A stretch of DNA of 64,000 nucleotides. Source: Candidatus Babeliales bacterium. Its GTDB lineage: Bacteria; Babelota; Babeliae; Babelales; JANWKD01. This document shows positions 3,425 through 50,076 of this stretch, piece after piece; the first letter of the stretch is position 1, and each line of letters begins with the position of its first letter. Where the stretch lies: contig CAVXJH010000003.1 in NCBI GenBank assembly GCA_963762115.1, positions 96,001-160,000 on the forward strand, read 5' to 3'. The notes below the pieces were generated by a model. The model did not search any database, was not told where the DNA came from, and worked only from the letters and a program-made list of their open reading frames with translations. Both the position numbers and the translations under genes were made by a program.

Positions 3425-3429
3425 AAAAA

Positions 3430-4146
3430 ATGAATAAAAATGAATTACATACATTAATTGAAATGTATAGTCATGAAAGGTCCAAAAAAAACACCGAAGC
3501 TTTAGAAGTTTTTTTGGAAGATTGTTTAAAAAATAACCCTTTTGATACTTACTTATGGGTTAAACTAGCTTTAACCGTATATCATCGTCCTTTGTTTGAT
3601 GACTTAAAAGCAATAGCATGCCTTGAAAAAATTCTTGAGTATGATCCCCATAATGTAAAAATAACACTTGTATTAATATACATGGTGAGCAATTGTAAAT
3701 TTTTTGATGATGAGTTATTTGAAAGATTATGCAAACTACAAACTCAAGATAAAGCATTACTCTCATTAATTGAATATACAAAATCATGGTATTATCTGGA
3801 TGAAAAAAATGATGAAATGTATGAGCAATGTTTAATCAATTCAATTAACTTATGCAGTGAATATCTGTGGAGTTATGTTGATTTGGGACAATTTTACCTT
3901 CAAAAAGGTAATTTAATAAAAGGTCATGAATTAATGAAAGAAGGGTTAAAAAAATTAGAATATGTTTTTGAAGAAAAACCTGCAAAAGATATTTTAAACC
4001 TTGAAGAGTTTTTGAATGAACGTTTTAAAGGGATTCATCTAGGTAAATCAAATTATAATATTATTTTGGAATCATTTGATCCAAAATCTCCCTGGATTAC
4101 CTGTGATTTTTTAACAAAGATCAGTAGAGATACAACAGAAAATTAA
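3430..4146 (+). CDS. TPR-like helical protein, putative cognate immunity protein
   Basis: Starts 5 bp after the toxin-like ORF; TPR-like AIACLEKILEYDPHN and YVDLGQFY segments; no signal peptide. Confidence 0.5.
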   Translation: MNKNELHTLIEMYSHERSKKNTEALEVFLEDCLKNNPFDTYLWVKLALTVYHRPLFDDLKAIACLEKILEYDPHNVKITLVLIYMVSNCKFFDDELFERLCKLQTQDKALLSLIEYTKSWYYLDEKNDEMYEQCLINSINLCSEYLWSYVDLGQFYLQKGNLIKGHELMKEGLKKLEYVFEEKPAKDILNLEEFLNERFKGIHLGKSNYNIILESFDPKSPWITCDFLTKISRDTTEN

Positions 4147-4151
4147 TAATA

Positions 4152-4682
4152 ATGATCAAATTAATAGATTTCAAGAAGAATGCTATTTCAATATCCTGGA
4201 AAACTATATTAGTTGGAAGAACATTAAAATTAGTGGATACCTCTTTTATTGAGGATTTTGCAACTCAATATTTACTAGATCATTATAAATTAGAGAATAA
4301 AGATATTATTGAATTGGCTTATGGTGTAAACGACACTTTTGAAATTGATGAAATGGTCAAAAAAATATTGAGCGAATTAAACCAAAATATAGATGAAAAT
4401 TCAGAAGAATGGAATATCGAAACAAGAAAATGGCGTTTTTTAGTATTACAAGAATTACTAAGTAAAGGTTATGATAATAGAAAAATTTTAGATGAAATTG
4501 AAAGCATATATTGTGATTTTGATCACCCTGAAGAAATGAATGCTTTTTTGATTTATATGCCTCATGTTTATGATGATGGATATAATATTAAAGATCATTC
4601 AGCTGAAGAAAATATAGCGCACATAGTGAAGCGGTTTAAAGATTTTCTTTTGAATGAACATAAAGAGCTATTAAAAAAATAG
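4152..4682 (+). CDS. DUF2247-like protein, putative immunity protein
   Basis: SWKTILVG...RKWRFLVL...IESIYCDFDHPEEMNAFLIYMP matches the DUF2247 pattern. Confidence 0.65.
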   Translation: MIKLIDFKKNAISISWKTILVGRTLKLVDTSFIEDFATQYLLDHYKLENKDIIELAYGVNDTFEIDEMVKKILSELNQNIDENSEEWNIETRKWRFLVLQELLSKGYDNRKILDEIESIYCDFDHPEEMNAFLIYMPHVYDDGYNIKDHSAEENIAHIVKRFKDFLLNEHKELLKK

Positions 4683-4711
4683 TTAAAAAAAATTATTAAG
4701 CGAAACAAAAT

Positions 4712-5290
4712 ATGAAAAAAATTTTTATACTAATCCTTTTTTTAATGGTAACTCAATCAAATTATGCTTTTATATTAGATGGATTATTAAAAATCGAAGA
4801 TTCAGTTGATGCAATAAAAATTGCTGCAGTTGATCTAGAACACTATGCAGATCAGATAACAACTTTTCGAAGAACCATATATACCGGCAGAAGCTTTGTT
4901 ACTATTGATGATTATTGGTGTGAATCCTTAGCTGCAAAAAGAAGTATTAATGAATATAACAACCAAGAACAGGCTCTTCAACTAAAAATTCTATTGAGTC
5001 TTTTATTTGATACCTTTGTTTTGGCAAATATTGCTGGATATTGTCATGCAAAATTTAATATGAAAATGCCTACGGTGATTTGTGGTATTATGGCAGCTGC
5101 TTTGGGTATAGTTGCTCATCAAAACAATAAAATGAAGAATGTGCCTTATTTTGATTTTTATTTAAAGCGGCATGAAGATAGATTCGATAATTTTAATTTT
5201 TTTAGTGCATTTAGATTTGCTTTTATTACTATAGAAGCAGGACTTATGGCATATTTGACACGAGCTTTTTATGAAATTCCATTCAACTAA
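4712..5290 (+). CDS. Hypothetical membrane protein with signal peptide
   Basis: MKK plus hydrophobic N-terminus; about three further hydrophobic helices. Confidence 0.6.
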   Translation: MKKIFILILFLMVTQSNYAFILDGLLKIEDSVDAIKIAAVDLEHYADQITTFRRTIYTGRSFVTIDDYWCESLAAKRSINEYNNQEQALQLKILLSLLFDTFVLANIAGYCHAKFNMKMPTVICGIMAAALGIVAHQNNKMKNVPYFDFYLKRHEDRFDNFNFFSAFRFAFITIEAGLMAYLTRAFYEIPFN

Positions 5291-14550: not shown

Positions 14551-15048
14551 TTACCCTACTTCAACGAAAAAGATGAGTAGTTTAATAATTGTTTTGACCA
14601 CAAAAGCTTTAATAATTATTTCCAGTGAATCAAAAAAAAAGCAGGTATGTTTTGGGGCATTAATAATATTTTTGGGGATATATTCAAGAATTTTATTTTT
14701 CAGCCCAGAATTTTTTGTTAAATCGGCATTTTCTGTATAAATTTCACTATGTTTAACATAAATTGCATAGGAACAATATAAAAGCATGGAAAAATCTATG
14801 CCATATTTTGAAAAAAAAGTCATATATTTTTTAAATTTTTTATGCAAAGAAATCGAAGAAGTATTTTGTAGTGGTTGTTGCATATAATAATGCTGTAAAT
14901 AGGGTTTTTCAGCATAAAGTTGTGCAACATGTTGTTCAATGCTTTTATTTTTACTGTGTAGAAATGATGAAGAGTGCCTCGTGGGCGCTCTTTTTTTTGT
15001 TTTGTGTGGCAATGAGCGGCGTACTGATACTGAGTATGAGCACGCCAC
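14551..15048 (-). CDS. Hypothetical protein
   Basis: 165-aa ORF co-oriented with neighbours; start uncertain. Confidence 0.4.
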   Translation of the reverse strand: MACSYSVSVRRSLPHKTKKRAPTRHSSSFLHSKNKSIEQHVAQLYAEKPYLQHYYMQQPLQNTSSISLHKKFKKYMTFFSKYGIDFSMLLYCSYAIYVKHSEIYTENADLTKNSGLKNKILEYIPKNIINAPKHTCFFFDSLEIIIKAFVVKTIIKLLIFFVEVG

Positions 15049-15063
15049 TAAAATAATATTTTT

Positions 15064-16029
15064 TTAAATACATTCGATTGTGTTGGTAGTAACAACACTA
15101 ACATATTCAGGTTGCAGTTGCTGTACTCGTTGTTGTTGAAATCTTGGAATAAATTTGTCATGCATAATGGCGCTGCTATAATCACTCATCCAAGCAAGCA
15201 GAACATCTTTTAAAAACACTAAGCGTTTAATTTTTGTGTGCGCTTGCACAAGTTCAATCTCTTGTTTGGGGAAAATATATCCCAATTTTGTGTAGTTGAG
15301 CCATTCATGTATTCGTATAAATTGATTAAGCTGTGCCAATTCGTGGTCAACCGCATTATTGAATTTAACAATTGGCGTCATTAAATCTGCGCCATGAACA
15401 GGCAGATATTTTGCTTTAATGGCATTAAACAATTCTTCTGCCACTTCTTGATGAGGTACTTCAAGCATGACTTCAACGGGAATATGTTCTTTCCAGCTTG
15501 CCCACGTATTTTTTTTCATAACTTTATATGATGTATTGTATAACTTTATTAAATATGTTGCGTAGAGGGCGACGAGTGCTCCTGCGGTAATGGTATAAGG
15601 ATTAAGTGAGCAAGCAGTGTTTTTGAAGCTTGTGAGCATTTCACCCACAGAAGGAAGTTGCCAGGATGGTTGTGGGGAATTGTTTGTTTCTAATGCAGGT
15701 TGCGTGTTTGGGGTTCTTATTGTTGGCGGTGGTAATGTAGGGGTTGGCACTGATGATTCTTGTAGTAAAGATGGTTGTAGGGGTGTTTGTGGTGTTGCAA
15801 TACTTGGTGTTGTTGGTGCTGGTAGGTAACGAGGTTGTTCTTGCGTTACTAAGCGATATACAATGGGTGGTTGGTGGTTTGCTGTTTCGTGACCATCGAT
15901 TCTATTGCTTGCGCTATTGAAATTATTGCTTGAAACATACACCGTTACATTTTTTCTTTTTGGTGTTGCTTCTTCGCTGTTTGTAGCATCAATTGCTAAT
16001 AATATTGCAATAAGTGTTGTATATTTCAT
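15064..16029 (-). CDS. Exported protein with Pro/Thr-rich linker and central TM helix
   Basis: RBS AAGGA, signal-like N-terminus, PAPTTPSIATPQTP linker, hydrophobic ITAGALVALYATYLI. Confidence 0.7.
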   Translation of the reverse strand: MKYTTLIAILLAIDATNSEEATPKRKNVTVYVSSNNFNSASNRIDGHETANHQPPIVYRLVTQEQPRYLPAPTTPSIATPQTPLQPSLLQESSVPTPTLPPPTIRTPNTQPALETNNSPQPSWQLPSVGEMLTSFKNTACSLNPYTITAGALVALYATYLIKLYNTSYKVMKKNTWASWKEHIPVEVMLEVPHQEVAEELFNAIKAKYLPVHGADLMTPIVKFNNAVDHELAQLNQFIRIHEWLNYTKLGYIFPKQEIELVQAHTKIKRLVFLKDVLLAWMSDYSSAIMHDKFIPRFQQQRVQQLQPEYVSVVTTNTIECI

Positions 16030-16050
16030 AGGCTTCCTTTTTTTTAAGTA

Positions 16051-16680
16051 TTAACCAAATTTTTCTTCTATATATTTTTTAATTCCTTGTTCTTCTGCTT
16101 CGAACACTTTTTTTCTATGGTTTATTATTTCAAGATATCCTACAAGACCCGATAAAACCGGAGTAATAACAATAGATGTTGTTATTGACCAAAAAGCTGC
16201 CTTTATTGCCGTCTGTGCTGCACTATGTTCTTCATCAACAGCTTTTTTTATTGCTGCAATTTTGTCTTTTTGTTCTTTGATTGTTTTTGGCCATTGTTTT
16301 TTTTCACTTTCGCTGAGCTTTGCCACTAAAAATTTCCATTCAGCATCAGTAAACGTTTCCAAAAAATTTTCATATCCTTCACCATCAAATGTTCTAAAAA
16401 ATGCACTTCGATGCTGTTTTGAAAATTTTAGTAATATTTTTTTTTGCTTTGCTTTTGTCAAAGAGATCACGCATTCTTTAAGTTTATCGCCTGAAATTGT
16501 CGAACAACGGATCACTTTCTTTTTTGGCTCTTTGTTTAATTGTATTGAGTTGGTTGCTTCTTGTTTGTTGTCAATATTAAGGTAAATGACCGTTTCAGCA
16601 TCAGGCAGATTAGGTGCAGAAGAGAAAAGTAGTGTAGTGTATAATGAGAAAAAGAGTAAAAGTATTCTATTTTTTGACAC
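16051..16680 (-). CDS. Exported/membrane hypothetical protein
   Basis: GTG start with GAGG RBS, signal peptide, C-terminal TM helix. Confidence 0.65.
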   Translation of the reverse strand: MSKNRILLLFFSLYTTLLFSSAPNLPDAETVIYLNIDNKQEATNSIQLNKEPKKKVIRCSTISGDKLKECVISLTKAKQKKILLKFSKQHRSAFFRTFDGEGYENFLETFTDAEWKFLVAKLSESEKKQWPKTIKEQKDKIAAIKKAVDEEHSAAQTAIKAAFWSITTSIVITPVLSGLVGYLEIINHRKKVFEAEEQGIKKYIEEKFG

Positions 16681-16909: not shown

Positions 16910-19501
16910 ATGAATGAGCAAAAAAAGAATACATTAGGCACAAAATGGATCACTATAGTCGGTGCGCGTGAGCATAATTTAAAAAATGTCAGTGTGTCAA
17001 TACCTAAGGACGCCTTTACGGTAATTACCGGTCCTTCAGGTTCGGGTAAAAGTACTCTTGCCTTAGATATTTTATACACTGAGGGCAAAAGGCGGTATAT
17101 GGAGTCACTTTCATCTTATGCCCGTCAGTTTTTAGGAATTGCCAAGAAGCCTGATTTTGATCGCATTGAAGGGTTATGCCCATCAATTGCTATTGAGCAA
17201 AAAACGGTAGGTAATAATCCTCGTTCAACCGTTGGTACTATTACAGAGATTTATGATTATTTACGCGTATTATTTGCGCGTATTGGAAAAGCACATTGCC
17301 CAAAATGTTCTGTTGTTATTGCTGCGGAATCTCCTGAAAATATCACACGCATGGTCTTGAAAAATTTTGACCAACAAACGGTGACAATAGCTGCTCCTGT
17401 AGTGATTGCTAAAAAGGGTGAATTTATCCAACAGCTACAAGAATTATTTACGCAAGGTTATTACCGTTTCAACATTGATGGTAAGAAGTATCGTTTTACC
17501 AATGTTGAAGAAATAATGGGATTAAAATTAGGAAAAACATATAAGCACTCAATTGATCTGTTATTAGATGTTCTTGAAGTTTCATCGCAAGAACGCTCGC
17601 GGTTGCAAGAATCAGTTGAGCGTTCATTTTCATTGGCGCAAGGATTTTGTAAAATCATTGTCGGTGAAACTGAACATGTTTATTCTTCAAGTCGTATTTG
17701 TTTGCAGTGTGCCACCTCATTTCCTGAGTTAGAACCGCGACTTTTTTCTTTTAATTCTCCCATTGGCGCTTGTAAGAATTGTCATGGTCTTGGCATATTA
17801 AACGTTATTCCTTGGGCTCGAGACGGAGCACAAGAGTGGAAAGAAGGCTACGATTATTTTTTCTCAGCGGCTTCACAAAATTCGATCTGTACTTTTTGCG
17901 ATGGAAAACGTTTGAATCCTTATGCGCTTGCTGTTGAGATTAATGGTAAAAATATTCAAGATATTGCAAATCTTTCAATTACCCAATCACTTGCATTTTT
18001 TAGTAGTATAAAACTTGATGAAACAGAAAAAATGATTGCGGAAACAGTTCTTAAAGAAATTCATAACAGGCTTATGTTTTTAGACAATGTTGGCCTTTCG
18101 TATTTGTCTCTCAATAGAACCGCGCGCACGCTATCCGGCGGTGAGGGTCAACGCATTCGGCTTGCGACTCAAATTGGTTCAGCATTAACGGGCGTTTTAT
18201 ATATTCTTGATGAGCCAAGTATTGGTTTACATCAACGAGATAATGATCGCTTACTTGAAACACTCAAGAAATTACGTGATCAAGGAAACACGGTTGTGGT
18301 GGTGGAACATGATCTTGATACCATTGCACATGCTGATTATTTGATTGATATGGGTCCTGCAGCAGGTATTTTGGGGGGACAAGTTACGGCATTTGGGAAC
18401 CCTGATGAAGTTGCGCAAAATCCGGCTTCATTGACCGGTGCTTATTTAGCAGGTAAACGCACTATTGCTTTTCCTGAGGCTATTCGAACGCCGCAAGGGT
18501 ATTTAACATTACAGCATGCACAAAAAAATAATTTAAAAGATCTTTCAGTCTCAATTCCACTAGGCGTTTTATGTTGCGTTTCAGGGGTATCTGGTTCTGG
18601 TAAAAGTACCTTGGTTCTTGATGAATTAGTGCCAGCGGTTGAAAGAGCGTTATCAAGCAGAGGCAGATCAAAGCAAATTTTACAAGCTGACGATAACTTA
18701 ACCGGTGCAGAGGTGTTGGAATCATTGGTGGTGATTGATCAATCACCAATCGGCAAAACGCCACGATCAAATCCAGCAACGTATTTAGGCATTTTTGATG
18801 AAATTCGAGCTCTCTTTGCAGCGCTTCCTGAAAGTAATGCTCGTGGTTATAAAGTTGGCAGATTTAGTTTTAATGTTGAAGATGGTCGTTGTTTTGAATG
18901 TCGTGGTGATGGAACCATTACCGTATCAATGCAGTTTTTAGCTGATGTTATTATGGTTTGCAAGGTTTGTGGTGGGAAACGGTATAATAAAGAGACTTTG
19001 GATATACGTTATAAGAACAAGACTATTGCGGACATATTGAGCTTGTCAGCGCGAGAAGCCGTTGAGTTTTTTGCGGCCCATAAATCAGTTGCAAAACGAT
19101 TACAACTTCTTTGTGATGTCGGGCTTGATTATTTGACGTTGGGCCAACCTTCAACAACGTTGTCAGGTGGTGAAGCGCAGCGTATTAAGCTCGTGAATGA
19201 ACTTGCAAAACGTGGTAATCGAACGCTTTATATTCTCGATGAACCAACAACGGGTTTGCATAACAGTGATATTGATAAGTTAATTACGGTACTTAATAAT
19301 TTGGTTGCTAAGGGCAATTCGATGGTGGTTATTGAGCACAATCTTGATGTGCTCAAGATTGCGGATCATTTGATTGATTTAGGCCCTGAAGGTGGCGATG
19401 CTGGCGGTATGATTGTTGCGCAAGGAACGCCGCAAGAAGTTGCCAAGGTTGAAAAAAGTCATACCGGAAGATATTTAAAAGAGTTATTTAAAAATTTTTA
19501 A
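16910..19501 (+). CDS. uvrA: Excinuclease ABC subunit A
   Basis: GAREHNLKN, two Walker A motifs ([16 protein letters not shown]), LSGGE signatures, zinc fingers. Confidence 0.98.
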
Positions 19502-29843: not shown

Positions 29844-31379
29844 CTAGAAATTTTTTCTTGGGGCGTCGCCAAGTGGTAAGGCACCGGGTTTTGGTCCCGG
29901 CATTCGGAGGTTCGAATCCTTCCGCCCCAGCCATCGTTTATTATCAATCGAATTTATAATGACATCAAACGGTCTTTGTGCGTCGTAGAGCACTTTTTCA
30001 TTTTCAATACGCAAGTTCGATAGTACTAAATTAATTAACTGACGTTTTTCATTCACTTCTGAACTCACAAACCATTCATATGCACGATTGCTAATATCCA
30101 GCACATATTTTGCGGTAGTATAATAATTGTCTTCTGCTTCTCGTAATTGAAGTAAGCGCATGTTAAGATTTTCGCTTTGCTCGCTAAGAGATTGATAGAA
30201 CTTATCATACTGCTCATCAGAAATTTTACCTTTGAGTTTATCAAGGTATAAGTTATCCATCATTTTTGTTGTTATTTTTTGTTCATTGGTGAGCTTGTCA
30301 AATTGTTGGTTATGAAATTTAATTTTATCTTTATGTAATTCATTAAGATTGTCAGTTATTTTTTGTACGGTAGCTTCTGGTAGTTGAAGGCTTTTGAATA
30401 CTTGCCCAAGTTGTTCTGTTATTTCTTCTTCTCGCAACCACTTAGCACCATGCTTTCCTTTATATTGCGTGCAATGATAGTAGGTGAATCCCTTATGTTT
30501 TTCGGGGGTAATTGAACAGCCGCAATGTCCGCAACGCAAAAGACCTCTATACATATAAGGTAGACCAGCATATTTGAAAGGTTTTTTATTGAAGCCATCT
30601 TTTACTTGCTTAACTTCTTCAAAAAGTGTTTTTGAAATAAGAGGCGGATACCGATGTGGATATAATTTTCCCTTTATCAACATTTCACCATGATAAAAAG
30701 AATTGCCAAGGACTTTGGCAAAATAACTCTTGGACCATTGAATGTTAAAGTCAGCTTTCAGTTTTTGGGACAGAGTTTCTATTGAGTATGCCTTTGTTGC
30801 ATAGAGCTCAAAGATTTTTTTAATGATTGCTGAGGTATAATCATCAACTATGATATCTGTGGTGCCATCCTCCTTGGTGATATTCAAATAGCCATACGGT
30901 GCTTTTGAAAGCCATTCCCCTTTGCGTAGTTTTTGCTCTTGAGCGCGTTTTACATTATCGCTGATTGCATCAGAATAATATTTTGCAAGACCAAGGCTGA
31001 TACTAAATTGAAATTTTTCTACGGCAGAAATGCGACTGTTTAGCACTTGACCATCTGATACAAAATGTAGCTCTAGTTTATCCTGAAGTGCTTTTTCATA
31101 AAGTATGGCGACTTTTTTGTCAAAAATATTGCGAGATAAGCGATCGACTTTATCACAGCAGACGGCGATTTTCTCTTTTTGTGCAAGTACAAAATCAATG
31201 ATACCATTAAACTCATCTCGAGGTCCTTCATGCGCACTTTCATCAAAGCTAAATACTTGAAGAATTGGAAAGCCTTTATTTTGGCAATATTTTTCAAGAC
31301 GGGCTATCTGTGCAGGAAGTGAGTTGCCTGCTTCCCTTTGTTCTTCTGTGCTAACACGTGCAATGAGAATTGACTTCAT
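29844..31379 (-). CDS. Large serine recombinase (integrase); 3' end overlaps the tRNA antisense
   Basis: Catalytic ARVSTEEQ, DKVDRLSRN, KAPYGY recombinase domain, Zn ribbon CGHCG...YYHC, coiled coil; last 29 codons are antisense tRNA and flank. Confidence 0.95.
   Translation of the reverse strand: MKSILIARVSTEEQREAGNSLPAQIARLEKYCQNKGFPILQVFSFDESAHEGPRDEFNGIIDFVLAQKEKIAVCCDKVDRLSRNIFDKKVAILYEKALQDKLELHFVSDGQVLNSRISAVEKFQFSISLGLAKYYSDAISDNVKRAQEQKLRKGEWLSKAPYGYLNITKEDGTTDIIVDDYTSAIIKKIFELYATKAYSIETLSQKLKADFNIQWSKSYFAKVLGNSFYHGEMLIKGKLYPHRYPPLISKTLFEEVKQVKDGFNKKPFKYAGLPYMYRGLLRCGHCGCSITPEKHKGFTYYHCTQYKGKHGAKWLREEEITEQLGQVFKSLQLPEATVQKITDNLNELHKDKIKFHNQQFDKLTNEQKITTKMMDNLYLDKLKGKISDEQYDKFYQSLSEQSENLNMRLLQLREAEDNYYTTAKYVLDISNRAYEWFVSSEVNEKRQLINLVLSNLRIENEKVLYDAQRPFDVIINSIDNKRWLGRKDSNLRMPGPKPGALPLGDAPRKNF
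29859..29933 (+). tRNA. tRNA-Gln (anticodon TTG)
   Basis: Acceptor stem TGGGGCG/CGCCCCA, anticodon arm CCGGG-TT-TTG-GT-CCCGG, T-loop GGTTCGAATCC, encoded CCA. Confidence 0.97.
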
Positions 31380-32650: not shown

Positions 32651-33841
32651 TTAATGCTTAATAAATCTTATTTTGGTAGTTAAATTATTAAAATACTTGC
32701 AAGCCTTGCAATTAAGGTTTGCCATAGGAACAATATCACTCTGTAATGATTCCAATGCATCATAAATTGTTGCCTGGACCCAGGAATCATCAATTTTATG
32801 CGCAAATAAATATGGTTCAAATTCAAGCTTCCAATCAAATGAATTTTTATCGGTAATTGCATTGCAAAAAAGTAAATAACCCGTTGAGCAAACAGTATAA
32901 TTATTTTTTTTGAATATCCAAGCATAAAATTCTATTTGCTTCTTGTATTCGTGAAGATATGGAATATTGCTAAAATTCGGATAAATTATAGATTTAACGA
33001 TAGTCTTATAATCAACTATAACCAGTTCTTTTTTATCATTTATCCATACATCATCAACCCCACCATTCACAAACCAATTCTCCCAAACATGATGGAATTG
33101 AATTCCATATTTTCTTTTTTCTTCCCATGACCAAGCGGTTTGCCATTTTTTTAATTTTTTATGACGTAATGGTTTAAAACCTTCGGGCATAATTGGATGC
33201 GCTTCTCCTCTAGTTCGATATTGGTCGAATTCTTTCTTCAAAAGACTATCAACCGCTCTTGATAAAGCAAAAACCTCTCCATCAGCAATTGGTTGCTTAA
33301 TGCCAAGCTTTTTATCAATATAGAAACATCGCTTACAGTATAAGAATGTCTTAATATCAGTCCAACTAAATTCTCTGCGTACTGGCAATTCAGAATTTGT
33401 TTTTTCCTCAATAGGAGGTATATTGCGAGGGTTTATTTTAGGGGCAAATAATTCAGCTTCAATAGCATTATTACAAGAGGCAATTCCAAGCAACCCTTCA
33501 TATAAAATTCTACTCATTAGAAATATTTCTGGAGAATTTTCTTCTAAAGAATTTCTATATTTTTCTTTTGGTAAAATTATTTGAGATTTTATATATTGGC
33601 CAGATGGATTATGTAAAAGAGTTAAAGTTATTTTGATAGATTCGTTTTTTAATTTATCAATCGCATGTTCTATAGAAAGACCATGCTTGATTAAAATATT
33701 ACGGTTTTTTTCGAGCAATGATTTATAATCAGCTTCTGGGTCAATATTTGTTAAAATAATACCATCAATTCCGCCTTTAGCTGCTTCAATCAGAGCTCGA
33801 ATTAATTTTTTTCGTTCGGAGGATTTATATAAGATAGACAT
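32651..33841 (-). CDS. PD-(D/E)XK RecB-family nuclease with N-terminal extension
   Basis: FSWTDI...CKRCFY, GGVDDV...IVDYKT, QIEFY, CKACKY. Confidence 0.85.
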   Translation of the reverse strand: MSILYKSSERKKLIRALIEAAKGGIDGIILTNIDPEADYKSLLEKNRNILIKHGLSIEHAIDKLKNESIKITLTLLHNPSGQYIKSQIILPKEKYRNSLEENSPEIFLMSRILYEGLLGIASCNNAIEAELFAPKINPRNIPPIEEKTNSELPVRREFSWTDIKTFLYCKRCFYIDKKLGIKQPIADGEVFALSRAVDSLLKKEFDQYRTRGEAHPIMPEGFKPLRHKKLKKWQTAWSWEEKRKYGIQFHHVWENWFVNGGVDDVWINDKKELVIVDYKTIVKSIIYPNFSNIPYLHEYKKQIEFYAWIFKKNNYTVCSTGYLLFCNAITDKNSFDWKLEFEPYLFAHKIDDSWVQATIYDALESLQSDIVPMANLNCKACKYFNNLTTKIRFIKH

Positions 33842-34940: not shown

Positions 34941-35192
34941 AAGTTGAAATAGTTGAAGTAGATTGAAAAAAAGTCAACTTATCAATATTGGCAATAGATC
35001 GTCATTTCAAGCAAGAATAATCTTGTAGATTTAAAAGTTGAAACCAATCAATTTCCATTGTTGTAATGTTAATAGAAGAGGATTTGTTTCAACTTTTAAA
35101 CTTAATCGTTAATAATATTCATAACCATCGTCTACATCGAAATGTTCCTATGTTGAAATTATTGTTCAATTTTCATCAACTTTTTCAATTGA
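34941..35192. repeat. Cluster of (G/A)TTGAA repeats in both orientations, putative replication origin
   Basis: AAGTTGAAA at 34941 and 35035, AGTTGAA at 34951, TCAACTT at 34974, TTTCAACTT at 35087, GTTGAAA at 35152 and others, at the 3' end of the primase gene. Confidence 0.5.
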
Positions 35193-37574
35193 TTGCTCTA
35201 GCAATTGATATAACCAATCGTTTTTTTGGCCAATTTGATTACATGAAATTTTTCCCTGTTGGATAAGTGTTTCAAGAATGTAATCATACTCTTGGCATCC
35301 GCCATCCAGTTGATGTGAATTGAGAAGGGATTGCCTTCTAACAGAGGATTTTGTTTTTACAATTTTCTTGCAAATCCATTCAAGTATTTTACGGCACTTG
35401 CGCTGATGTTCAGATTCCCCGAGTTCTCCTTCAATTAAATTAGCGGTTGATTTTATAGCCGGCATAAGAATGGCAAAGGCAGAATAAAGGGCTTCAACTC
35501 CTATTTCTTTAGATTTCGTGTCTATAAAAAGTTGCATAATCATAGCCAATTTTAAAAGGCAAGGACTCCAGCGTTTAAGGTGTGGTTCAAGTATTTCTTG
35601 GCATTTATCGCTATAGGAAGGCATTATTTTGTAAATATCCTGATGAAAGCCCTCAAAAATCACTTCTGCTTGATGTGAAAAAGTATAGCTATAGAAGTTG
35701 TCCATATTTTGTAATATTTCCTTGACCTTTTGTTCTGCTTGTTGATTTGATTTTGTTTTTTTAGTTGGCAAAGCAGGTGGTATTTCATATTCATGCGGTG
35801 GAGCGAAAATAAGAAATCTTGCAAAAAAACCACTAGCAAAATCTTCAGGTTTAATGTGTGCCTTTAACCATGCAAGTGTAGAAACAGCGCATATAGAAAT
35901 ATATGGCTCATTTAAAATAAAGTCGCCTCGTGTTACTGTTTTGTAGCGATAACTACGAGGAACATCATACAGCTCTGTAAGTAGTGCTTTAAGATCGCCA
36001 TTGTAGCTTTTTTCCAGATTTAAAAGCCAACCACCAAATTCGCTTGGTAAAATAATACCGGAATGTCCTTGTCCAAGATGCTCAAGTAAAGCTTCCGTAG
36101 TAACTTTAGTTGGCAAAACAACATCTTTGATAGATATTTCAATGATTTGTGCTTTGAGTTCCTTTATTTTTTTGGTATCAGTTTCGAGTTGCAGTTCTTT
36201 GCGTAAATCTTTAGTAAGTTCTCCGACATCCTTTGAAATTTCTAATGCAAGTTTGGTGCCTTTAGTTAATGCGGTGCTTTTGAATTGTCCACTACCGGTA
36301 ACATTTATCATCCAAATATTTGGATAAAGAGTTTGAAAATACTGATCATCTGAAATGAACACACGTTTTCCAATATAAGCTGATATCATGCCCATAACAG
36401 CACTTGTTACCATGATCGGATGTGCATTCGTTGTTGCGCAGATAGAGTTTACATAGTTACCTAAGATTGGCGGGAGAAGGGTTGTAGAGAATGTTGCGCA
36501 TGGATCATTTACTTTAAGAGGTTTTTTTGAAACAATTTTGAGATCATCAGTTTTAATAGCTTCTGAAGAGCAATGTATCGCACTTGCAGAACAGAGTTGC
36601 ATTCTAACTTCTTCTAATCCGCATAGTTGATGAAGGTCGTTGAAATCAGTATAGGGCTTATCATGGGGATCTAATCTTTTGTCTGTTGGAAATACCGGAA
36701 AAATAGTTTTGCATTGAAAAACATCAGCAGCCGCATTAGCCTTTTTTATGCCGGTTTCATCATTATCTCCGGCAATTATAATTATACTTTTTGGAAATGC
36801 TTTTTTTAGGTTTTCAATTACTGGAAGTAGATTGTAAGCATCATAAGCAATGACGACTGTTCCAACATTTGTTGAATAAATACTGACACCGGTTGCCCAG
36901 CCCTCAGTAACATACAGAGTATTACCATCGAGAAGTTCTCCAAGATTATAAAAATTTCCCCTTTTTTCTCCGTCTTGAAGAAAACGCTTAATTATTTTGC
37001 CTCGTTCATCAACATAAATAGATTGTAGTGAGCGGATCTCACCTTTTATATTTTTTAAGGGAAGCAATATTCTTGGGAATTTATTAAAAATAGTAAACTT
37101 TGCACCTATTGCTTCAATTCCTTTAGATTTTGGATATCTAAGGAAATCTTGAGAAGATGGTTCGTTTAAAGCTTCATTCCATACTTTTGTAGCAAGTATT
37201 GCGGCATTATTTTGTGCATCTTTTATTTGTTGTTCCGCTTCTTTTTTCTTTTTTTCGAACTCTGATTGCAGATGTTGTCGTTCCATATCTGATATGTTGC
37301 ATTTGTCATAAGATTTGAAAATATATTGGTTTCCTGTGCTCCATGAGCCATATATGACCGTTAAATATAGACGATCTTGCAAAGAGGTTCCTTCATAGGC
37401 AATATACCATTCATCACGTTTGTTTCTTTGTGTATCTGTTGAATATCGGTGAATTCTACCATCTGTAATGATTTGATCTTCGCATGGCAAACCATTTTCT
37501 GTCATGTGATTGTGGAGTTCTTCTACTAAATCATGTTGATTTTTGATATAATTATTCATAAGAAATTCTTTCAT
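35166..37574 (-). CDS. TOPRIM primase fused to DUF3987-like P-loop helicase (element replicase)
   Basis: YVTEGWATG, IIIAGDND, TDFNDL; TGSGQFKST Walker-A-like motif; SEFGGWL, LTELYD, GFFARFL. Confidence 0.85.
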   Translation of the reverse strand: MKEFLMNNYIKNQHDLVEELHNHMTENGLPCEDQIITDGRIHRYSTDTQRNKRDEWYIAYEGTSLQDRLYLTVIYGSWSTGNQYIFKSYDKCNISDMERQHLQSEFEKKKKEAEQQIKDAQNNAAILATKVWNEALNEPSSQDFLRYPKSKGIEAIGAKFTIFNKFPRILLPLKNIKGEIRSLQSIYVDERGKIIKRFLQDGEKRGNFYNLGELLDGNTLYVTEGWATGVSIYSTNVGTVVIAYDAYNLLPVIENLKKAFPKSIIIIAGDNDETGIKKANAAADVFQCKTIFPVFPTDKRLDPHDKPYTDFNDLHQLCGLEEVRMQLCSASAIHCSSEAIKTDDLKIVSKKPLKVNDPCATFSTTLLPPILGNYVNSICATTNAHPIMVTSAVMGMISAYIGKRVFISDDQYFQTLYPNIWMINVTGSGQFKSTALTKGTKLALEISKDVGELTKDLRKELQLETDTKKIKELKAQIIEISIKDVVLPTKVTTEALLEHLGQGHSGIILPSEFGGWLLNLEKSYNGDLKALLTELYDVPRSYRYKTVTRGDFILNEPYISICAVSTLAWLKAHIKPEDFASGFFARFLIFAPPHEYEIPPALPTKKTKSNQQAEQKVKEILQNMDNFYSYTFSHQAEVIFEGFHQDIYKIMPSYSDKCQEILEPHLKRWSPCLLKLAMIMQLFIDTKSKEIGVEALYSAFAILMPAIKSTANLIEGELGESEHQRKCRKILEWICKKIVKTKSSVRRQSLLNSHQLDGGCQEYDYILETLIQQGKISCNQIGQKNDWLYQLLEQSIEKVDEN

Positions 37575-39565: not shown

Positions 39566-39680
39566 TTATTGAGCAGGAAATGTATGGTTATGCGTAAGAC
39601 TTGAAACTACGGTCTGTACGTGTTGCAAACTAAAGCTAAATTGGATATCCTGACTAAACATGTCTATGATGGGCAGCCAT
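39566..39680 (-). other. Displaced 3' end of the integrase gene at attR (WL-PIIDMFSQ...FPAQ*)
   Basis: In frame with the integrase across the CAGCCAT core; open for 37 codons to a TAA at 39566-39568. Confidence 0.75.
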
Positions 39681-39730
39681 ACTATTAATCATGTTTTTCT
39701 ACATGATTTTTTTTGATTTAAAGATTTTTT
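39677..39730 (+). repeat. 54-bp direct repeat copy 1 (tRNA CCA end plus terminator hairpin)
   Basis: 52/54 identical to 45545-45598; contains AATCATGT-6 nt-ACATGATT plus T-run. Confidence 0.9.
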
Positions 39731-39860: not shown

Positions 39861-41753
39861 ATGTTTTTTAAGAAAGCCTTAAAGTTGGTATTATGTACTC
39901 TGACACTTTTTACCACAATAACCATGCATCCTATGGGCCCTAATGAGCTCATAGATTTTCTCACTAAAAATGGTGATACTGTCAGTCTTAAGCGTAAAAT
40001 TGCTGAGCAATCAGGGACAATTTCACATTTATTGGGTGATGTTGATGATCAAGCGCAAGAAGCAATTCCCTTGCCCATTTCAACTGCAATGTTTAAAAGT
40101 ATAAAACCTTTGTTGAAAAAAAACTTTAAAAGTTCTCGATTGCCACAACCGGACACTCAATTATCTCAACAAAATTTACAACAACAATATACTCAGTTAT
40201 CTCAAAAAATTTTACAACAACAATCTGACAACACGTTATTAAAACTTATTCAAACAACTAACTATTTAGATTGCCCTCCTATTTTAGAAAAGTGTGCAGA
40301 TGTTCTTGCAGAAAGAACTTTTAAAAAAAATAGTAATCTTTATATTGTTAGCGCATTTGTATGGACCCAAAAAATGTTACAAAAATTACCCAATGAGCTT
40401 TTGGTCTTAATTCAACAAGCATATCTTAAAAAATCTTGTGATCTTTTTGAGCATGTTCATAATCCTATGCAAACAGAAATTAAGCCAATAACATTAACTG
40501 ATAATAACGGTCAAATTCGATCAGTTCATTATGATATTGATGGAAAAAACATTATTACTCAGATAGATGATGATACCATTTGTCATTGGGACCCTGAGAC
40601 ACAACAAAAAACAACGTTAATTAATAAAACACATTGGCCGTCTCTTGCCTCGAGAAATGAAAATAGAATACACAGCAATAAAATATATTTTGAGACAAGT
40701 GCTTATTCTCCAGATGGTTCAACCTATGCAATTGGTGGAAGCGATACAGTTTGTATTTGGGATCTTAATAAAAAAGAATTACTTAACCATAAAAAGCTTC
40801 CACGTCAATTTAGGACAATGTGTATGTCATATCATCCAGCTCTAACAAGACTTGCTGTTGGCAGTGGCCCTAGAGGAGAAGTTGTTATTTTTGATATAGA
40901 AACTATGGATGTTATTCATACTTTGAAAACTAATGGTATTTGGGTTAAAAATATAAAATATGCGCCGGATGGAAGAACTCTTGCAACAAGTAATATTGGA
41001 AGAAGTAATTCGGTAAAAATATGGGATCAAGAACTAGAAAATTGCCTAAAAACTATTGATGTTGGTGATGATAGTGATGATACTTTCGGACCTCCAGTTA
41101 TATGTTATTCACCTAATAATCAATTTTTGGCCTGCGCAGCAAGTAATAAAATTACTATTTACGAAACAACTAATAATTATGCATGTATTAAAGATATTAA
41201 AAGAGGTGAAAAACCTTTAAATAATGATAAGCAAATTAACTTAATTCAATATACATCAGACGGAAAATATTTGATTGCTGGATTGCAAGATGGAACAATT
41301 GAGTTTCGGGAAACAAATAATTATACTTGCATAAAAACACTTTCATACGATCGACCAATCTGGTCTGTTGCTTTTAATAAGAATGGATCACATATGGCTA
41401 GCATTTCACCAGGAAAAGAATATCCTGAAAGCCGTCTTGTATTGTGGGATATTTCTAGTTTATTTCTTGAAAATATTTTTAAAGAATTAAATTTTGAAGA
41501 ATTATTATTGATAACTAAAGTTGCACTGGCAAAAAAGAACAGTACTAAACTTGAAGTTTGCCCTCTTCATACTAATGAACTTGATGCAACAACAGGAATA
41601 AAAATTTCAGATATTTATGCGAATATACCAAGTCAACTTAAAGAAAAATTAGAACCATATATTAGATTGAATAGATCATGCAAATGTACTTTTTTGCCTA
41701 TTAAAGTTCCTGGGACCCCAAAAACTACGGAAAGAAATAATTATGATTTTTAA
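39861..41753 (+). CDS. Exported Skp1/BTB-like + F-box-like + WD40 protein, copy 1
   Basis: Start MFFKKALK after GGGGA; Skp1-like IAEQSGTISHLL..IPLP..LIQTTNYLD; KLPNELL; WD40 repeats (YSPDGS, VCIWD, VKIWD, LVLWD). Confidence 0.85.
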   Translation: MFFKKALKLVLCTLTLFTTITMHPMGPNELIDFLTKNGDTVSLKRKIAEQSGTISHLLGDVDDQAQEAIPLPISTAMFKSIKPLLKKNFKSSRLPQPDTQLSQQNLQQQYTQLSQKILQQQSDNTLLKLIQTTNYLDCPPILEKCADVLAERTFKKNSNLYIVSAFVWTQKMLQKLPNELLVLIQQAYLKKSCDLFEHVHNPMQTEIKPITLTDNNGQIRSVHYDIDGKNIITQIDDDTICHWDPETQQKTTLINKTHWPSLASRNENRIHSNKIYFETSAYSPDGSTYAIGGSDTVCIWDLNKKELLNHKKLPRQFRTMCMSYHPALTRLAVGSGPRGEVVIFDIETMDVIHTLKTNGIWVKNIKYAPDGRTLATSNIGRSNSVKIWDQELENCLKTIDVGDDSDDTFGPPVICYSPNNQFLACAASNKITIYETTNNYACIKDIKRGEKPLNNDKQINLIQYTSDGKYLIAGLQDGTIEFRETNNYTCIKTLSYDRPIWSVAFNKNGSHMASISPGKEYPESRLVLWDISSLFLENIFKELNFEELLLITKVALAKKNSTKLEVCPLHTNELDATTGIKISDIYANIPSQLKEKLEPYIRLNRSCKCTFLPIKVPGTPKTTERNNYDF

Positions 41754-43617
41754 GAAAGCTTTAAAGTCTCTTTTATGTATTCTGACATTTTTTACGATAG
41801 TAACCATGCATTCAATGCAGCAACCAAATGATCCTAATGAGCTCATAGGTTTTCTCACTAAAAATGGTGATACTGTCAGTCTTAAGCGTAAAATTGCTGA
41901 ACAATCAGGGACAATTTCACATTTATTGGGTGATGTTGATGATCAAACGCAAGAAGTAATTCCCTTGCCCATCTCAACGGCAATGTTTAAAAGTATAAAA
42001 CCTTTGTTGAAAAAAAATTTTAAAGGTTCTCGATTGCCACAACCGGACACTCAATTATCTCAACAAAATTTACAACAACAATATACTCAGTTATCTCAAC
42101 AAATTTTACAACAACAATCTGATAATGCGTTATTAAAACTTATTCAAACAACCAACTATTTAGATTGTCCTCCTATTTTAGAAAAGTGTGCAGATGTTCT
42201 TGCAGTAAGAACTTTTTCAAAAAATAGTGATCTTTATATTGTTAGTGCATTTGTATGGACCAAAAAGATGTTACAAAAATTACCAAATGAGCTTTTGGCC
42301 TTAATTCAGCAGGCATATCTTAAGAAATCTTGTGATCTTTTTGAGCATGTTCATAATCCAATGCAAGCAGAAATTAAGCCAATAACATTAACTAATAATA
42401 ACGGTCAAATTCGATCAGTTCATTATGATATTGACGGAAAAAAAATTATTACTCAGATAGATGATGATACCGTTTGTTATTGGGACCGTGAGACACAACA
42501 AAAAACAACGTTAATTGATAAAACACATTGGCAGTCTCTTGCCTCGAGAAATGAAAATAGAATGCTCAGAGATAAAATGTATTTTGAGACAAGTGCTTAT
42601 TCTCCAGATGGTTCAACGTATGCAACTGGTGGAAGCGATACAGTTTGTATTTGGGATCTTAATAAAAAAGAATTACTCAACCATAAAAAGCTTTCATGGC
42701 AATTTAGGCCAAAGTGTATGTCATATCATCCAACATTAAAAAAGCTGGCTGTTGGCAGTGGTCGTAGAGGAGAAGTGGTTATTTTTGATATGGAAACTAT
42801 GGAAGTTGCTCATAGTTTGAAAACTAATGATATTTTGGTTAAAAATATAGAATATGCGCCGGATGGAAGAACTCTTGCAATAAGCACTATTGGAAATGGA
42901 AGCAATTCATTAAAAATATGGGATCTAGAACTAAAAAATTGCCTAAAAACTATTGATGTTGATTATGATACTTTCGTATCACCAATTATATGTTATTCAC
43001 CTAATAGTCAATTTTTGGCCTATGCATCAAGTAATAAAATTACTATTTACGAAACAACTAATAATTATGCATGTATTAAAGATATTAAAAGAGGTGAAAA
43101 ACCTTTAAATAATGATGAGGAGCAAATTAACTCAATTCAATATACATCAGACGGAAAATATTTGATTGGTGGATTGCAAGATGGAACAATTAAGTTTTGG
43201 GAAACAAGTAATTATACTTGTATAAAAACACTTTCATACGATCGACCAGTCTGGTCTGTTGCTTTTAATAAGAATGGATCACATATGGCTAGCATTTCAC
43301 TAGGCAAGAGATATCCTGAAAGTCATCTTGTGTTGTGGGATATTTCTAGTTTATTTCTTGAAAATATTTTTAAAGAATTAAATTTTGAAGAATTATTATT
43401 GATAACTAAAGTTGCCTTGGCAAAAAAGAATAATAGTAAGCTTGAAGTTTGTCCTCTTCATACTAATGAACTTGATGCAAAAGCAGGAATAAAAATTTCA
43501 GCTATTTATGCGAATATACCAAGTCAACTCAAAGAAAAATTAGAACCATATATTAGATTGAATAGATCATGCAAATGCACTTTTTTGCCTATTAAAGTTC
43601 CTGGGGAAAAAAAATAA
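41743..43617 (+). CDS. Exported Skp1/BTB-like + F-box-like + WD40 protein, copy 2
   Basis: Near-identical tandem duplicate of 39861..41753. Confidence 0.85.
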   Translation: MIFKKALKSLLCILTFFTIVTMHSMQQPNDPNELIGFLTKNGDTVSLKRKIAEQSGTISHLLGDVDDQTQEVIPLPISTAMFKSIKPLLKKNFKGSRLPQPDTQLSQQNLQQQYTQLSQQILQQQSDNALLKLIQTTNYLDCPPILEKCADVLAVRTFSKNSDLYIVSAFVWTKKMLQKLPNELLALIQQAYLKKSCDLFEHVHNPMQAEIKPITLTNNNGQIRSVHYDIDGKKIITQIDDDTVCYWDRETQQKTTLIDKTHWQSLASRNENRMLRDKMYFETSAYSPDGSTYATGGSDTVCIWDLNKKELLNHKKLSWQFRPKCMSYHPTLKKLAVGSGRRGEVVIFDMETMEVAHSLKTNDILVKNIEYAPDGRTLAISTIGNGSNSLKIWDLELKNCLKTIDVDYDTFVSPIICYSPNSQFLAYASSNKITIYETTNNYACIKDIKRGEKPLNNDEEQINSIQYTSDGKYLIGGLQDGTIKFWETSNYTCIKTLSYDRPVWSVAFNKNGSHMASISLGKRYPESHLVLWDISSLFLENIFKELNFEELLLITKVALAKKNNSKLEVCPLHTNELDAKAGIKISAIYANIPSQLKEKLEPYIRLNRSCKCTFLPIKVPGEKK

Positions 43618-45324: not shown

Positions 45325-45544
45325 ACCTAATATTTTTTAAAAATATATGTATGGATTAAATTTTACTATGTTAAAAATTACTATACAACTATCGGATAAT
45401 TAACCCAAGTTATGGCTCAATTATAAAATCCTTTTAATTTAATTATTCGCTCTGTAATTTATAACGAGTTGTTGGTGAAAATCTGCTGAATTTGCTAATA
45501 TCATTTAAGTTATTGTGGAGTTGAAGTGTAATCAGTGACTTCAC

Positions 45545-45598
45545 CCATACTATTAATCATGTTTTTCTACATGATTTTTTTTCATTTAAAGGTTTTTT
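45545..45598 (+). repeat. 54-bp direct repeat copy 2
   Basis: 52/54 identical to 39677-39730. Confidence 0.9.
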
Positions 45599-45612
45599 CA
45601 GAGGACAGAAAT

Positions 45613-46440
45613 ATGAGAATAAACGTTCGTTGTTTTTCTATTATTTTTTTGTTGATTTTTACGGTGATTTTTTCTTGTACCGCCATGAATAAAAAAAGCC
45701 GACGAGAAAATGAAGGCAATCAAATTGTTCAAATTTTTAATCCTAAAAAATTGATGGATATTCTTGCTAAAGAAATTTATGATTGGCAAGATTATAGTGA
45801 TCAAGATGTTGGATTTGATGTATTGGAACAATTGCCAGATGATGTTGCTTTCCAAGTAGTAAAGCAGTATAAAGATAAAATTGATAATACTTTATTGCAT
45901 ATTCATGCATCGGGCGGAAGATGTGAGAATGTGAGGTATCTTATACGCATTGGCCTTAGTCCTTTGGAAGAAAATAGTAGAGGGCAAACGCCAATGATTT
46001 TTGCTGCACAATGCGGTCCTTTTGAACTATTTGAACTATTATTTTTACATGATAAAGATTATTATTTTGCTGAAAATAATAAATCTATGTTACATGAATT
46101 AACGCGACATTTAGTTGCCATGCCAAGGGTAGAAGCATTTAATTTTTATAGACAATATATTGCCGAAAAAAATCGCCGTTTTATTGATTTATTACATTTT
46201 CCTGCATTAAGGGGTGGAAATCTTAATTGTTTAAAATATTTATTGCAAAAAATTTATGAAGAAGGGGGAGTTCAGTTAATTAAAGAAATTGATTTTCGTG
46301 AATCTCTTTCGTATAAAATGGCGAGAGTTGGGCTTAACCGGAGTTTGGCATTATTCTTATCTTTTTACTCTGGTATTCCAAATGAAAATATTGTAGGTGA
46401 AGAAGATCGGGGTAGTAAACGAATGCCACTTTTAATATAG
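45613..46440 (+). CDS. Exported ankyrin-repeat protein
   Basis: Start MRINVRC after GAGGA; signal peptide ending CTA-MN; NTLLHIHA..G, RGQTPMIFAA. Confidence 0.8.
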   Translation: MRINVRCFSIIFLLIFTVIFSCTAMNKKSRRENEGNQIVQIFNPKKLMDILAKEIYDWQDYSDQDVGFDVLEQLPDDVAFQVVKQYKDKIDNTLLHIHASGGRCENVRYLIRIGLSPLEENSRGQTPMIFAAQCGPFELFELLFLHDKDYYFAENNKSMLHELTRHLVAMPRVEAFNFYRQYIAEKNRRFIDLLHFPALRGGNLNCLKYLLQKIYEEGGVQLIKEIDFRESLSYKMARVGLNRSLALFLSFYSGIPNENIVGEEDRGSKRMPLLI

Positions 46441-47833: not shown

Positions 47834-47850
47834 AATAGTTGAAAAATAGT

Positions 47851-48462
47851 ATGAAAAATATTTTATTATTTGCTTCAAAATCAGCTCCTCGTCGTGAATT
47901 ATTGCAAAAGACACAAATTCCTTTCACTATAATTGAACAGAATGCTGATGAATCGCAATGTGATTGGGCATTGCCTTTTCCACAATTATTAGCATCAATT
48001 GCATTGCATAAAATGCATCAGGTGATTTTGCCAGAAGGTAAAGAGGGAGAGCATTGTTTTGTGCTTACCGTTGACACAATGTTACAAGCTCAAGACGGTA
48101 CCATTTTGGGTAAACCATCGTGTAAAGAAGCTGCCATAAAGATGATTCAAGCATCTCGCGATGGCGGAGTTGTAGCTTCGGCATTTTGTTTGGATAAAAA
48201 AATATTCAACAATGGATCGTGGATTGTTGATCAACGCATACAAAAATATGTGAGTGCAAACTATATTTTAGATTTTCCTGATTCTTGGCTTGAAAAATAT
48301 TTTGAAGAATATCCGGAATATTTAAACATTGCTGGAGCATTGAACATTGAAGAGTATGGTATGCAATTTGTTAAAACAATTAATGGTTCCTATTCAACGG
48401 CAATTGGGTTGCCGCTGTATGAATTACGTGAGTCACTTGAATCACTCGATTTTTTTGATTGA
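47851..48462 (+). CDS. maf: Maf family nucleotide pyrophosphatase, paralog 1
   Basis: LFASKSAPRRELL, LTVDT, ILGKP, AGAL.IE, GSYSTAIGLP. Confidence 0.9.
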   Translation: MKNILLFASKSAPRRELLQKTQIPFTIIEQNADESQCDWALPFPQLLASIALHKMHQVILPEGKEGEHCFVLTVDTMLQAQDGTILGKPSCKEAAIKMIQASRDGGVVASAFCLDKKIFNNGSWIVDQRIQKYVSANYILDFPDSWLEKYFEEYPEYLNIAGALNIEEYGMQFVKTINGSYSTAIGLPLYELRESLESLDFFD

Positions 48463-49467: not shown

Positions 49468-50076
49468 ATGAACAATATTCTTCTTTTAGCATCAAAATCA
49501 AAATCGCGGCGATTGCTTTTAGCACAAGCTGCTATTCCCTATGTTTTATTAGATCAAGAAGCTGATGAAGCGCAGTGTGATTGGGGAATGCCATTACAAA
49601 AATTAGTTGAATCGATAGCAGTGCATAAAATAGCGCAAGTGATTATGCCAAATGTCAAAGAGGGGCAAGAACTCTTTGTGCTGACTGCTGATACGTTAAC
49701 GCAAAATGCACAAGGTGCAATTCTTGGCAAACCAATTTCACGAGATCATGCCCATGAAATGATTAATTCATTGAGAGTTGGATCTGCGCGTGTTGGAACG
49801 GCATTTTGTCTTGATAAAAAGATCTATAAATTTAATGAATGGCAAATTATTGATCGTAAACTTGTTTTTGTTGAAGCAACGTGTAATTTTAAAGTTCCGG
49901 CACCTTGGATTGATCGTTATTTGGAATATTCTCATGCATTACAGTGTTCTGGTTCAATGGCAATTGATGATTATGGTGCACAATTTTTGCAGTCTCTTTC
50001 TGGTTCGTATACAACAATTCTTGGTTTGCCCATGTGTCAATTGCGAGAAAATCTAGAGATACTTGGATTCTACTAA
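49468..50076 (+). CDS. maf: Maf family nucleotide pyrophosphatase, paralog 2
   Basis: LLASKSKSRR, LTADT, ILGKP, GSYTTILGLP. Confidence 0.9.
   Translation: MNNILLLASKSKSRRLLLAQAAIPYVLLDQEADEAQCDWGMPLQKLVESIAVHKIAQVIMPNVKEGQELFVLTADTLTQNAQGAILGKPISRDHAHEMINSLRVGSARVGTAFCLDKKIYKFNEWQIIDRKLVFVEATCNFKVPAPWIDRYLEYSHALQCSGSMAIDDYGAQFLQSLSGSYTTILGLPMCQLRENLEILGFY

Follow-up and report, generated by a model that had tools for sequence, protein, structure and literature searches.

Tandem Babeliales genes encoding Skp1-like domains joined to WD40 propellers, candidate single-chain adaptors for a host cullin

The window analysed here is a stretch of 64,000 nucleotides from Candidatus Babeliales bacterium (assembly GCA_963762115.1, contig CAVXJH010000003.1, positions 96,001 to 160,000 of the forward strand), and positions are counted from its first letter. 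The source genome comprises 1.53 Mb in 7 contigs, with a GC content of ~34%. Positions 39861-43617 are filled by two intact open reading frames (ORFs) on the + strand, tandem paralogs with an 11-nt overlap, which we designated A (39861..41753) and B (41743..43617). Each encodes a protein in which a Skp1-like domain is joined to a WD40 propeller, and the two proteins are 86% identical. Gene A encodes 630 aa from an ATG with the purine-rich sequence AGGGGA a short way upstream, or 639 aa if an upstream TTG is used, and gene B encodes 624 aa. At the DNA level A and B differ by 8%, indels included, and this divergence makes an assembly artefact an unlikely source of the pair.

Protein A runs from a signal-like N-terminus through the Skp1-like domain, linker helices and the WD40 propeller to C-terminal helices, and B has the same architecture. 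On the + strand, the Sec-type signal-peptide-like segment of A lies at 39861..39932 (approximately residues 1-24, with an inferred cleavage point) and the Skp1-like BTB core at 39939..40328 (residues 27-156, its end corresponding to Skp1 helix 6), within which alignments to Skp1 placed Asn134-Tyr135 of the motif TNYLD at 40260..40265. Two linker helices follow at 40344..40460 (residues 162-200), the second opening with LPNELL (L176 at 40386). The seven-bladed WD40 propeller, the predicted substrate-binding part, occupies 40476..41450 (residues 206-530), and a helical domain seen in the AlphaFold2 model occupies 41454..41669 (residues 532-603). In B, also on the + strand, the Skp1-like domain lies at 41833-42222, the Asn-Tyr pair at 42154-42159, and LPNELL starts at 42280. 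The AlphaFold2 model of whole A had a mean predicted local distance difference test score (pLDDT) of 84.9 and a predicted template modelling score (pTM) of 0.78, and the N-domain alone scored 81.6.

A first, sequence-only reading of this DNA had held that the region after the signal peptide follows the eukaryotic Skp1 pattern and would adopt a Skp1/BTB fold. The resemblance was above chance: residues 27-190 of A matched human and yeast Skp1 chains of the PDB by phmmer at E 5e-4. The core BTB/POZ fold of Skp1 type was likewise recovered by profile, structure search and model, so that the fold side of that reading held up. Of the profiles run on A alone, Pfam Skp1_POZ gave a weak score of 19 bits, below its cut-off of 21.9, and F-box profiles gave nothing at E<=10. 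Compared with 1.84 billion representative proteins, A retrieved 12 that passed E 0.001, namely B, eight Skp1-type proteins without a signal peptide (three named from eukaryotes) and three signal-bearing family members; the best match after B was P0003, a 160-aa Skp1-type protein (E 1e-8). A family profile of 43 domains, designated A1, matched PDB chains of Skp1 with E values from 1e-22 to 1e-13 across Skp1 residues ~8-138. It also matched Elongin C, at roughly 1e-6 to 2e-3, and the 59 sequences at E<=1 included no BTB protein beyond these two. Skp1_POZ matched 33 of the 43 family members, and the Pfam BTB model PF00651 matched two of them weakly (best E 0.0025) and A not at all.

Structural comparison agreed with the profiles. 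A Foldseek search with the N-domain model gave 48 matches at E<=1e-3, with only Skp1-containing entries among the matches listed. In VIA, the top match was 1ldk_D, the Skp1 chain of a Skp1-cullin-F-box (SCF) structure (Z 13.2, root-mean-square deviation (rmsd) 2.9, 116 aligned), and the best non-Skp1 BTB reached Z 10.9. The model begins at strand B1, without the N-terminal dimerisation extension of Cul3 BTB adaptors, and the terminal helix of the BTB core is present in the chain (model helix 113-130), unlike in Elongin C. PF07525 had no match in the source genome at E<=1, and an Atlas search with the homolog P0008 gave BTB/propeller leads of 0.75-0.76, which are below threshold. These results support the conclusion that the domain is a Skp1 descendant and not a Cul3-type BTB. 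The A1 match stops near residue 138 of the 163 residues of Skp1, before the C-terminal F-box clamp, and PF01466, which represents Skp1 helices 7-8, matched in 0 of 5 family-rich genomes at E<=0.1 in a search run without a positive control. The C-terminal tail with which Skp1 clamps the F-box (helices 7-8) is therefore missing from the domain.

An F-box-like start had also been read behind this domain. The KLPNELL segment is indeed present (L176-P177 in A), and a full F-box is not: the Pfam models PF00646 and PF12937 gave no match to the N-terminal region and linker of A at E<=10, a search of the source genome with PF12937 at E<=1 left A and B unmatched, and models of the linker have a single long helix in place of the three-helix F-box of ~45 residues. 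LPNELL, in both A and B, follows the LPxE[IL] pattern of the first F-box helix, and F-box helix 1 itself touches Cul1. Of 68 proteins, 30 carry an LPxE-type motif within 50 residues past Skp1 helix 6; shuffling predicts 0.95, and 2 of the 222 downstream windows used as a control contain it. The motif was seen in 15 of 32 genome or locus groups, and 9 of the 77 proteins had no usable window and were left out of the count. A hidden Markov model (HMM) of 20 true Babeliales F-boxes scored A at 7.5 bits and B at 6.5 bits (shuffle maximum 4.4), and at least 5 bits were reached by 8 of 67 linkers and 0 of 335 shuffles. The string LPNELLVLI is common to A and L105, a stand-alone Babeliales F-box protein.

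The linker also resembles a 3-box. In VIA, the SPOP BTB/3-box chain aligned through the linker helices, reaching model position 170 with 129 aligned residues (Z 9.6, rmsd 4.1), and the SPOP and KEAP1 BTB/3-box chains aligned over the linker extension with rmsd 3.4-4.1. The 3-box has been described as an F-box analogue, and BTB-Kelch proteins as single-chain analogues of Skp1/beta-TrCP (PMC3597819). The label "Skp1 + F-box" is an overstatement, since of the F-box only the first helix is present, and that in 30 of 68 members; the adaptor end more closely resembles a BTB plus two-helix 3-box made of Skp1 parts. A and B belong neither to the Skp1 family proper (no clamp and no PxPN Asn), nor to the F-box family (one helix), nor to Pfam BTB.

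The cullin-binding face is partly retained. We take N139 and Y140 of yeast Skp1 to be the Asn-Tyr of the Skp1 motif NYL, which is consistent with the alignments to A, and this pair is intact in A and B. In yeast, the N139K/Y140K mutation of Skp1 inhibits Cul1 binding (PMC5771398). Across 83 Babeliales Skp1-like domains the Asn is found in 49 and the Tyr in 59, and NYLD is the best-kept motif. Among multi-domain proteins, 0 of 10 upstream copies have the pair; last or only copies have exact N-Y in 40 of 73 cases and [ND][YF] in 62 of 73, a comparison that may be biased by the building of A1 from last copies. A search of 201 genomes of the order, with a match in a giant-virus record as its positive control, returned no cullin, and the partner cullin would consequently be the host's. 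Full-length cullins are encoded by giant-virus bins (L059:2442-4484, L060:699-2792 and L061:2097-4430); the L059 and L060 proteins are similar to Cullin 1 of the protist/plant type, with ~41% identity to a Nannochloropsis Cullin 1 over the N-terminal 330 residues.

The WD40 propeller that the sequence-only reading had named was borne out by Pfam, by a closed, seven-bladed AlphaFold2 model and by matches to WD40 chains at Z~32; in the whole-protein fold search, the propeller filled the matches. Between A and B, dN/dS was 0.29 for the Skp1-like domain, 0.11 for the linker, 0.74 for the propeller and 0.16 for the C-terminal helices. The corresponding Nd/Sd counts were 56.5/19.5 for the propeller and 18/22 for the Skp1, linker and C-terminal parts combined (Fisher p 0.002-0.004). 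The docking end is conserved and the binding end is freer to change between A and B. The C-terminal helical domain, with the pattern L.LEQ.LL ... Y..LP...+..L after the propeller, is strongly conserved between the two, and similar helices close many family members.

As for the signal peptide, a basic and then hydrophobic start was recovered by a hydropathy heuristic, which is not a SignalP call. By this heuristic each protein opens with such a segment of 24 residues; in A, residues 1-8 carry a net charge of +3, the 11-residue hydropathy is 2.1, and there is no internal membrane segment. Signal-like N-termini were counted in 71 of 77 family members versus 273 of 567 long ORFs of the source genome, and in 0 of 8 Skp1 proteins. 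The source genome has two secretin genes, which agrees with a report of type II secretion components in the phylum (PMC4776705).

Isolates of the Babeliales are intracellular parasites of amoebae and flagellates (PMC4378268, PMC6561590). The 82 Babelota genomes with an A1 match, out of 261, fall in 11 of 21 families, and many of them have arrays; the five genomes supplying most A1 rows, and several more, match by construction. Pfam Skp1_POZ matched in 10 of the 61 related genomes searched and in none of 14 controls, and named records for this family carry the name 'Candidatus Babeliales bacterium' at 8 of 8 loci. The source genome has about 15 members: an iterative search gave 17-18 paralogs, and A1 at E<=1e-3 gave 16 ORFs, two of which resemble one gene across two contig ends. 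Members carry one to three Skp1-like domains, usually with WD40, sometimes with leucine-rich repeats (LRRs) or nothing further, and Pfam WD40 was found in 43 of 58 aligned members, a set chosen without LRR and propeller-less members. Most of a tree built by a quick method from 93 domains and 122 columns was unresolved, so that neither a donor nor a single origin can be claimed from these sequences; Babeliales copies clustered by genome, and 10 of 11 Skp1-type comparison domains grouped together (SH-aLRT 91). Viral contigs contained no relative with the narrow A2 pattern, and plasmids contained none by tblastn. Word-based protein searches, nearly blind to so divergent a family, returned 2 proteins (both the window's own) and 3, and are uninformative beyond Babelota. 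Ordinary F-box proteins were found in 59 of the 261 Babelota genomes, 26 of which also have the Skp1-like family, and in the source genome no stand-alone F-box protein was found at E<=0.001.

Several family members depart from the arrangement of A and B. Two or three tandem Skp1-like domains occur in L026 (G003:C1:973200-984500), L033, L043, L086 and P0007, where the Asn-Tyr pair is kept in the last copy only. LRRs replace WD40 behind the Skp1-like domain in L085 (genome G188) and in L045 of the source genome, the latter with a weak Skp1-like match. The paralogs L040:475-2823 and 2924-5254 (G000:C3:57414-62253) have a Skp1-like domain followed by a second domain with S-YF..L....M.ES, a pattern that we take to recall a Cul3-type BTB; this assignment by eye was set aside, as there was no Pfam BTB match. 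Array L021 includes propeller genes without a Skp1 core (14877-16103, 17930-18904 and 18924-19499) that open with a PSL.E.C-type helix plus an LP helix, BC-box/SOCS-like by eye; this too was unsupported, with no SOCS match and none with an HMM of the segment from helix 6 to LP. In genome G174, where 25 of 119 candidates were scored, Pfam F-box matches number at least 25 and stand beside 10 Skp1-like matches, a second, parallel expansion.

We propose that A and B are exported single-chain substrate adaptors that dock on host Cullin-1 through their own Skp1-derived domain while the propeller recruits host proteins, a proposal that we rate as evenly balanced between right and wrong. Such docking would be consistent with the kept Asn-Tyr pair and with the motif of F-box helix 1. 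The proteins would be exported by Sec and then by a secretin-based system or vesicles. The Skp1 core would dock host Cul1, with the LPxE helix replacing F-box helix 1, such that host Skp1 would not be needed. The WD40 propeller would then capture a host protein, which would be ubiquitinated by host Rbx1/E2. The Skp1 clamp and the rest of the F-box would both be missing because the covalent link renders them unnecessary.

A number of observations weigh against this proposal. The Asn of the Skp1 PxPN motif has been described as a Cul1 contact (PMC1257465), and this strand B3 Asn is deleted in A and B (IPLP-I); it is kept in 31 of 76 family domains, and is also absent from 3 of 11 Skp1-type comparison domains. 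The LPxE pattern was widened after inspection of the data, and the motif is missing from 38 of 68 members, including 9 of the 12 counted in the source genome. Scores with the F-box HMM are low, and 3 of 51 C-terminal windows also reached at least 5 bits, up to 7.7, which indicates that LP-helix starts are common in these proteins. About half of the long ORFs of the source genome pass the same signal rule, and a Sec signal alone reaches the periplasm only. Finally, the propeller dN/dS of 0.74 comes from one pair and can reflect relaxed constraint instead of selection. A broader proposal, which we place a little below an even chance, is that Babelota acquired Skp1 from a eukaryote early on and made of it a set of single-chain adaptors for Cul1 that spans the phylum (Skp1 core, built-in first F-box helix and swappable WD40 or LRR head). 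These adaptors would bypass and out-compete host Skp1, and together they would form a quickly changing repertoire of degraders of protist proteins.

The proteins might instead be decoys that bind Cul1 and switch off host SCF ligases by taking up the position of Skp1, with the propeller serving location or stability. The Cul1 face expected of a decoy is identical to that of an adaptor, and some members are short and propeller-less (L039, of 191 aa, and P0007, which has a pair of Skp1-like domains). Blocking the site would take a single decoy, whereas genomes retain as many as 14 or more divergent members whose propellers or LRRs vary, and we consider this explanation unlikely.

A second alternative retains the single-chain adaptor and changes its partner to Cul3, or to Cul2/5, through a Skp1-derived fold with altered specificity. 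A BTB fold, two helices and a propeller make up the architecture of Cul3 adaptors (PMC3597819), BTB/3-box chains align over the linker, A1 also matches Elongin C, the PxPN Asn is lost, and viral ligases have been reported to cross-use these folds (PMC13769053). The nearest relative by sequence and by structure is nevertheless Skp1, and the best-kept motif is the Skp1-type NYLD, so that a switch to another cullin seems improbable.

Alternatively, the Skp1-like domain may no longer bind any cullin and may act as a module for folding, oligomerisation or spacing in exported propeller proteins, the expansion being largely drift, as has been proposed for chlamydial families (PMC4209131). Many paralogs in the source genome have degenerate motifs, the domain occurs in tandem copies, and a search of 6 relatives at E<=1e-20 gave no close ortholog of A. 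Against this stand the purifying selection between A and B on the Skp1-like domain (0.29) and linker (0.11) and the selective retention of N-Y in the propeller-adjacent copy, and we regard a cullin-independent role as doubtful. That the proteins are Skp1 mimics which capture host F-box proteins and re-route or sequester them is very improbable: the domain does have Skp1 helices 5-6, which belong to the F-box-binding surface, but the clamp helices that form the critical part of this surface (PMC1257465) are unmatched in the A1 profile and PF01466 searches, and the site would likely be taken by the LPxE helix of the protein itself.

The A/B pair lies in a variable region. The distance from rsmH to the nuclease-family flank is ~19 kb here, 7.0 kb in a genome of the same genus and 5.4 kb in a genome of the same family. 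Neighbours of the pair include a tRNA-Gln (29859-29933), a large serine recombinase (29844-31379, -), a Cas4-like gene (32651-33841, -) and a Toprim/DUF3987 primase-like gene (35166-37574, -). The segment 29844-39451, which also holds ORFans, is a probable integrated element at the tRNA-Gln; its recombinase region has a 70% identical counterpart on contig C5, and no duplicated tRNA end was found. A 57-nt direct repeat stands upstream of A (39674..39730) and again at 45542..45598, the right copy being 95% identical to the left. These are the only two copies in the genome, and they bracket A, B, an 81-aa ORF and a YhcG/DUF1016 gene. The repeat stands before the Skp1-WD40 pair and before an ankyrin gene pair, and may be a shared promoter element or mark the ends of a 5.9-kb cassette. 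The GTG start listed for the ORF at 45535-46440 runs through the repeat, and for that reason its true start is probably later. Further downstream, two Maf-family genes (47839-48462 and 49468-50076, both +) lie within 1 kb of one another.

About a third of the Babelota genomes searched have the Skp1-derived domain. The proposal gives a testable function to hundreds of uncharacterised proteins predicted to be exported, from a phylum in which the manipulation of hosts has hardly been studied. If Cul1 binding holds, a minimal single chain can stand in for the Skp1/F-box pair and would mark the surfaces sufficient for cullin docking, and Cul1 would gain the one-chain design that eukaryotes use for Cul3. 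This would bear on the evolution of cullin adaptors and could provide compact modules, independent of Skp1, for basic research on targeted protein degradation.

In the literature searched, bacterial hijackers of SCF ligases mimic the F-box only and rely on host Skp1, and the search, which largely excluded subscription journals, returned no description of bacterial Skp1-domain fusions or of a Skp1-derived single-chain adaptor. The available text of the Babela paper (PMC4378268) reports F-box, RING and WD40 proteins and has Skp1 in a reference title only, and nine Babela supplement files and two TM6 supplement files contained no Skp1, BTB or POZ annotation. The stand-alone Babeliales F-box proteins (PMC4378268) occur in the same organisms as the A/B family and share with it signal-like N-termini and an LPxE first helix; unlike A and B, they have a full F-box and would need host Skp1. 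Giant viruses (Pandoravirus, Fadolivirus, Aureococcus virus and others in BFVD) also encode a parasite's version of the Skp1 fold, and their homologs were the top structural matches in the viral library; at 154-254 aa, the top matches named Skp1 are too short for a fused propeller.

The closest bacterial precedent is the BTB-LRR family PEX1 of Protochlamydia which, with the F-box families of Neochlamydia (PMC4209131; first noted in PMC1257465), has an N-terminal ligase adaptor domain and C-terminal repeats. These families too occur in amoeba-associated bacteria, have expanded by tandem birth and death, and are proposed host effectors. They have Pfam BTB or F-box domains with LRR/TPR and type III signals, whereas the A/B family, in another phylum, has Skp1-type domains, mostly WD40, and Sec-type signals; for PEX1 this distinction comes from the published description and not from sequence comparison. 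Chlamydiae have been called the only prokaryotes known with BTB (PMC4209131).

The eukaryotic counterpart in composition is the SCF pair of Skp1 and an F-box/WD40 receptor (Cdc4/Fbw7, beta-TrCP; 1ldk), with which A and B share a Skp1 core with the NYLD helix, an LPxE segment and a WD40 propeller. Unlike that pair, A and B are each one chain with a signal-like N-terminus and extra C-terminal helices, are without the Skp1 C-terminal clamp and F-box helices 2-3, and belong to a bacterial, multi-copy, fast-evolving family. The counterpart in layout is the Cul3 adaptor (BTB-BACK-Kelch proteins and SPOP; PMC3597819), likewise a BTB fold, a two-helix extension and a substrate propeller in one polypeptide; A and B differ from it in their Skp1 ancestry, in having no N-terminal dimerisation extension and in carrying WD40 and not Kelch or MATH. 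By this analogy, A and B would work like a Cul3 single-chain adaptor built from Cul1 parts.

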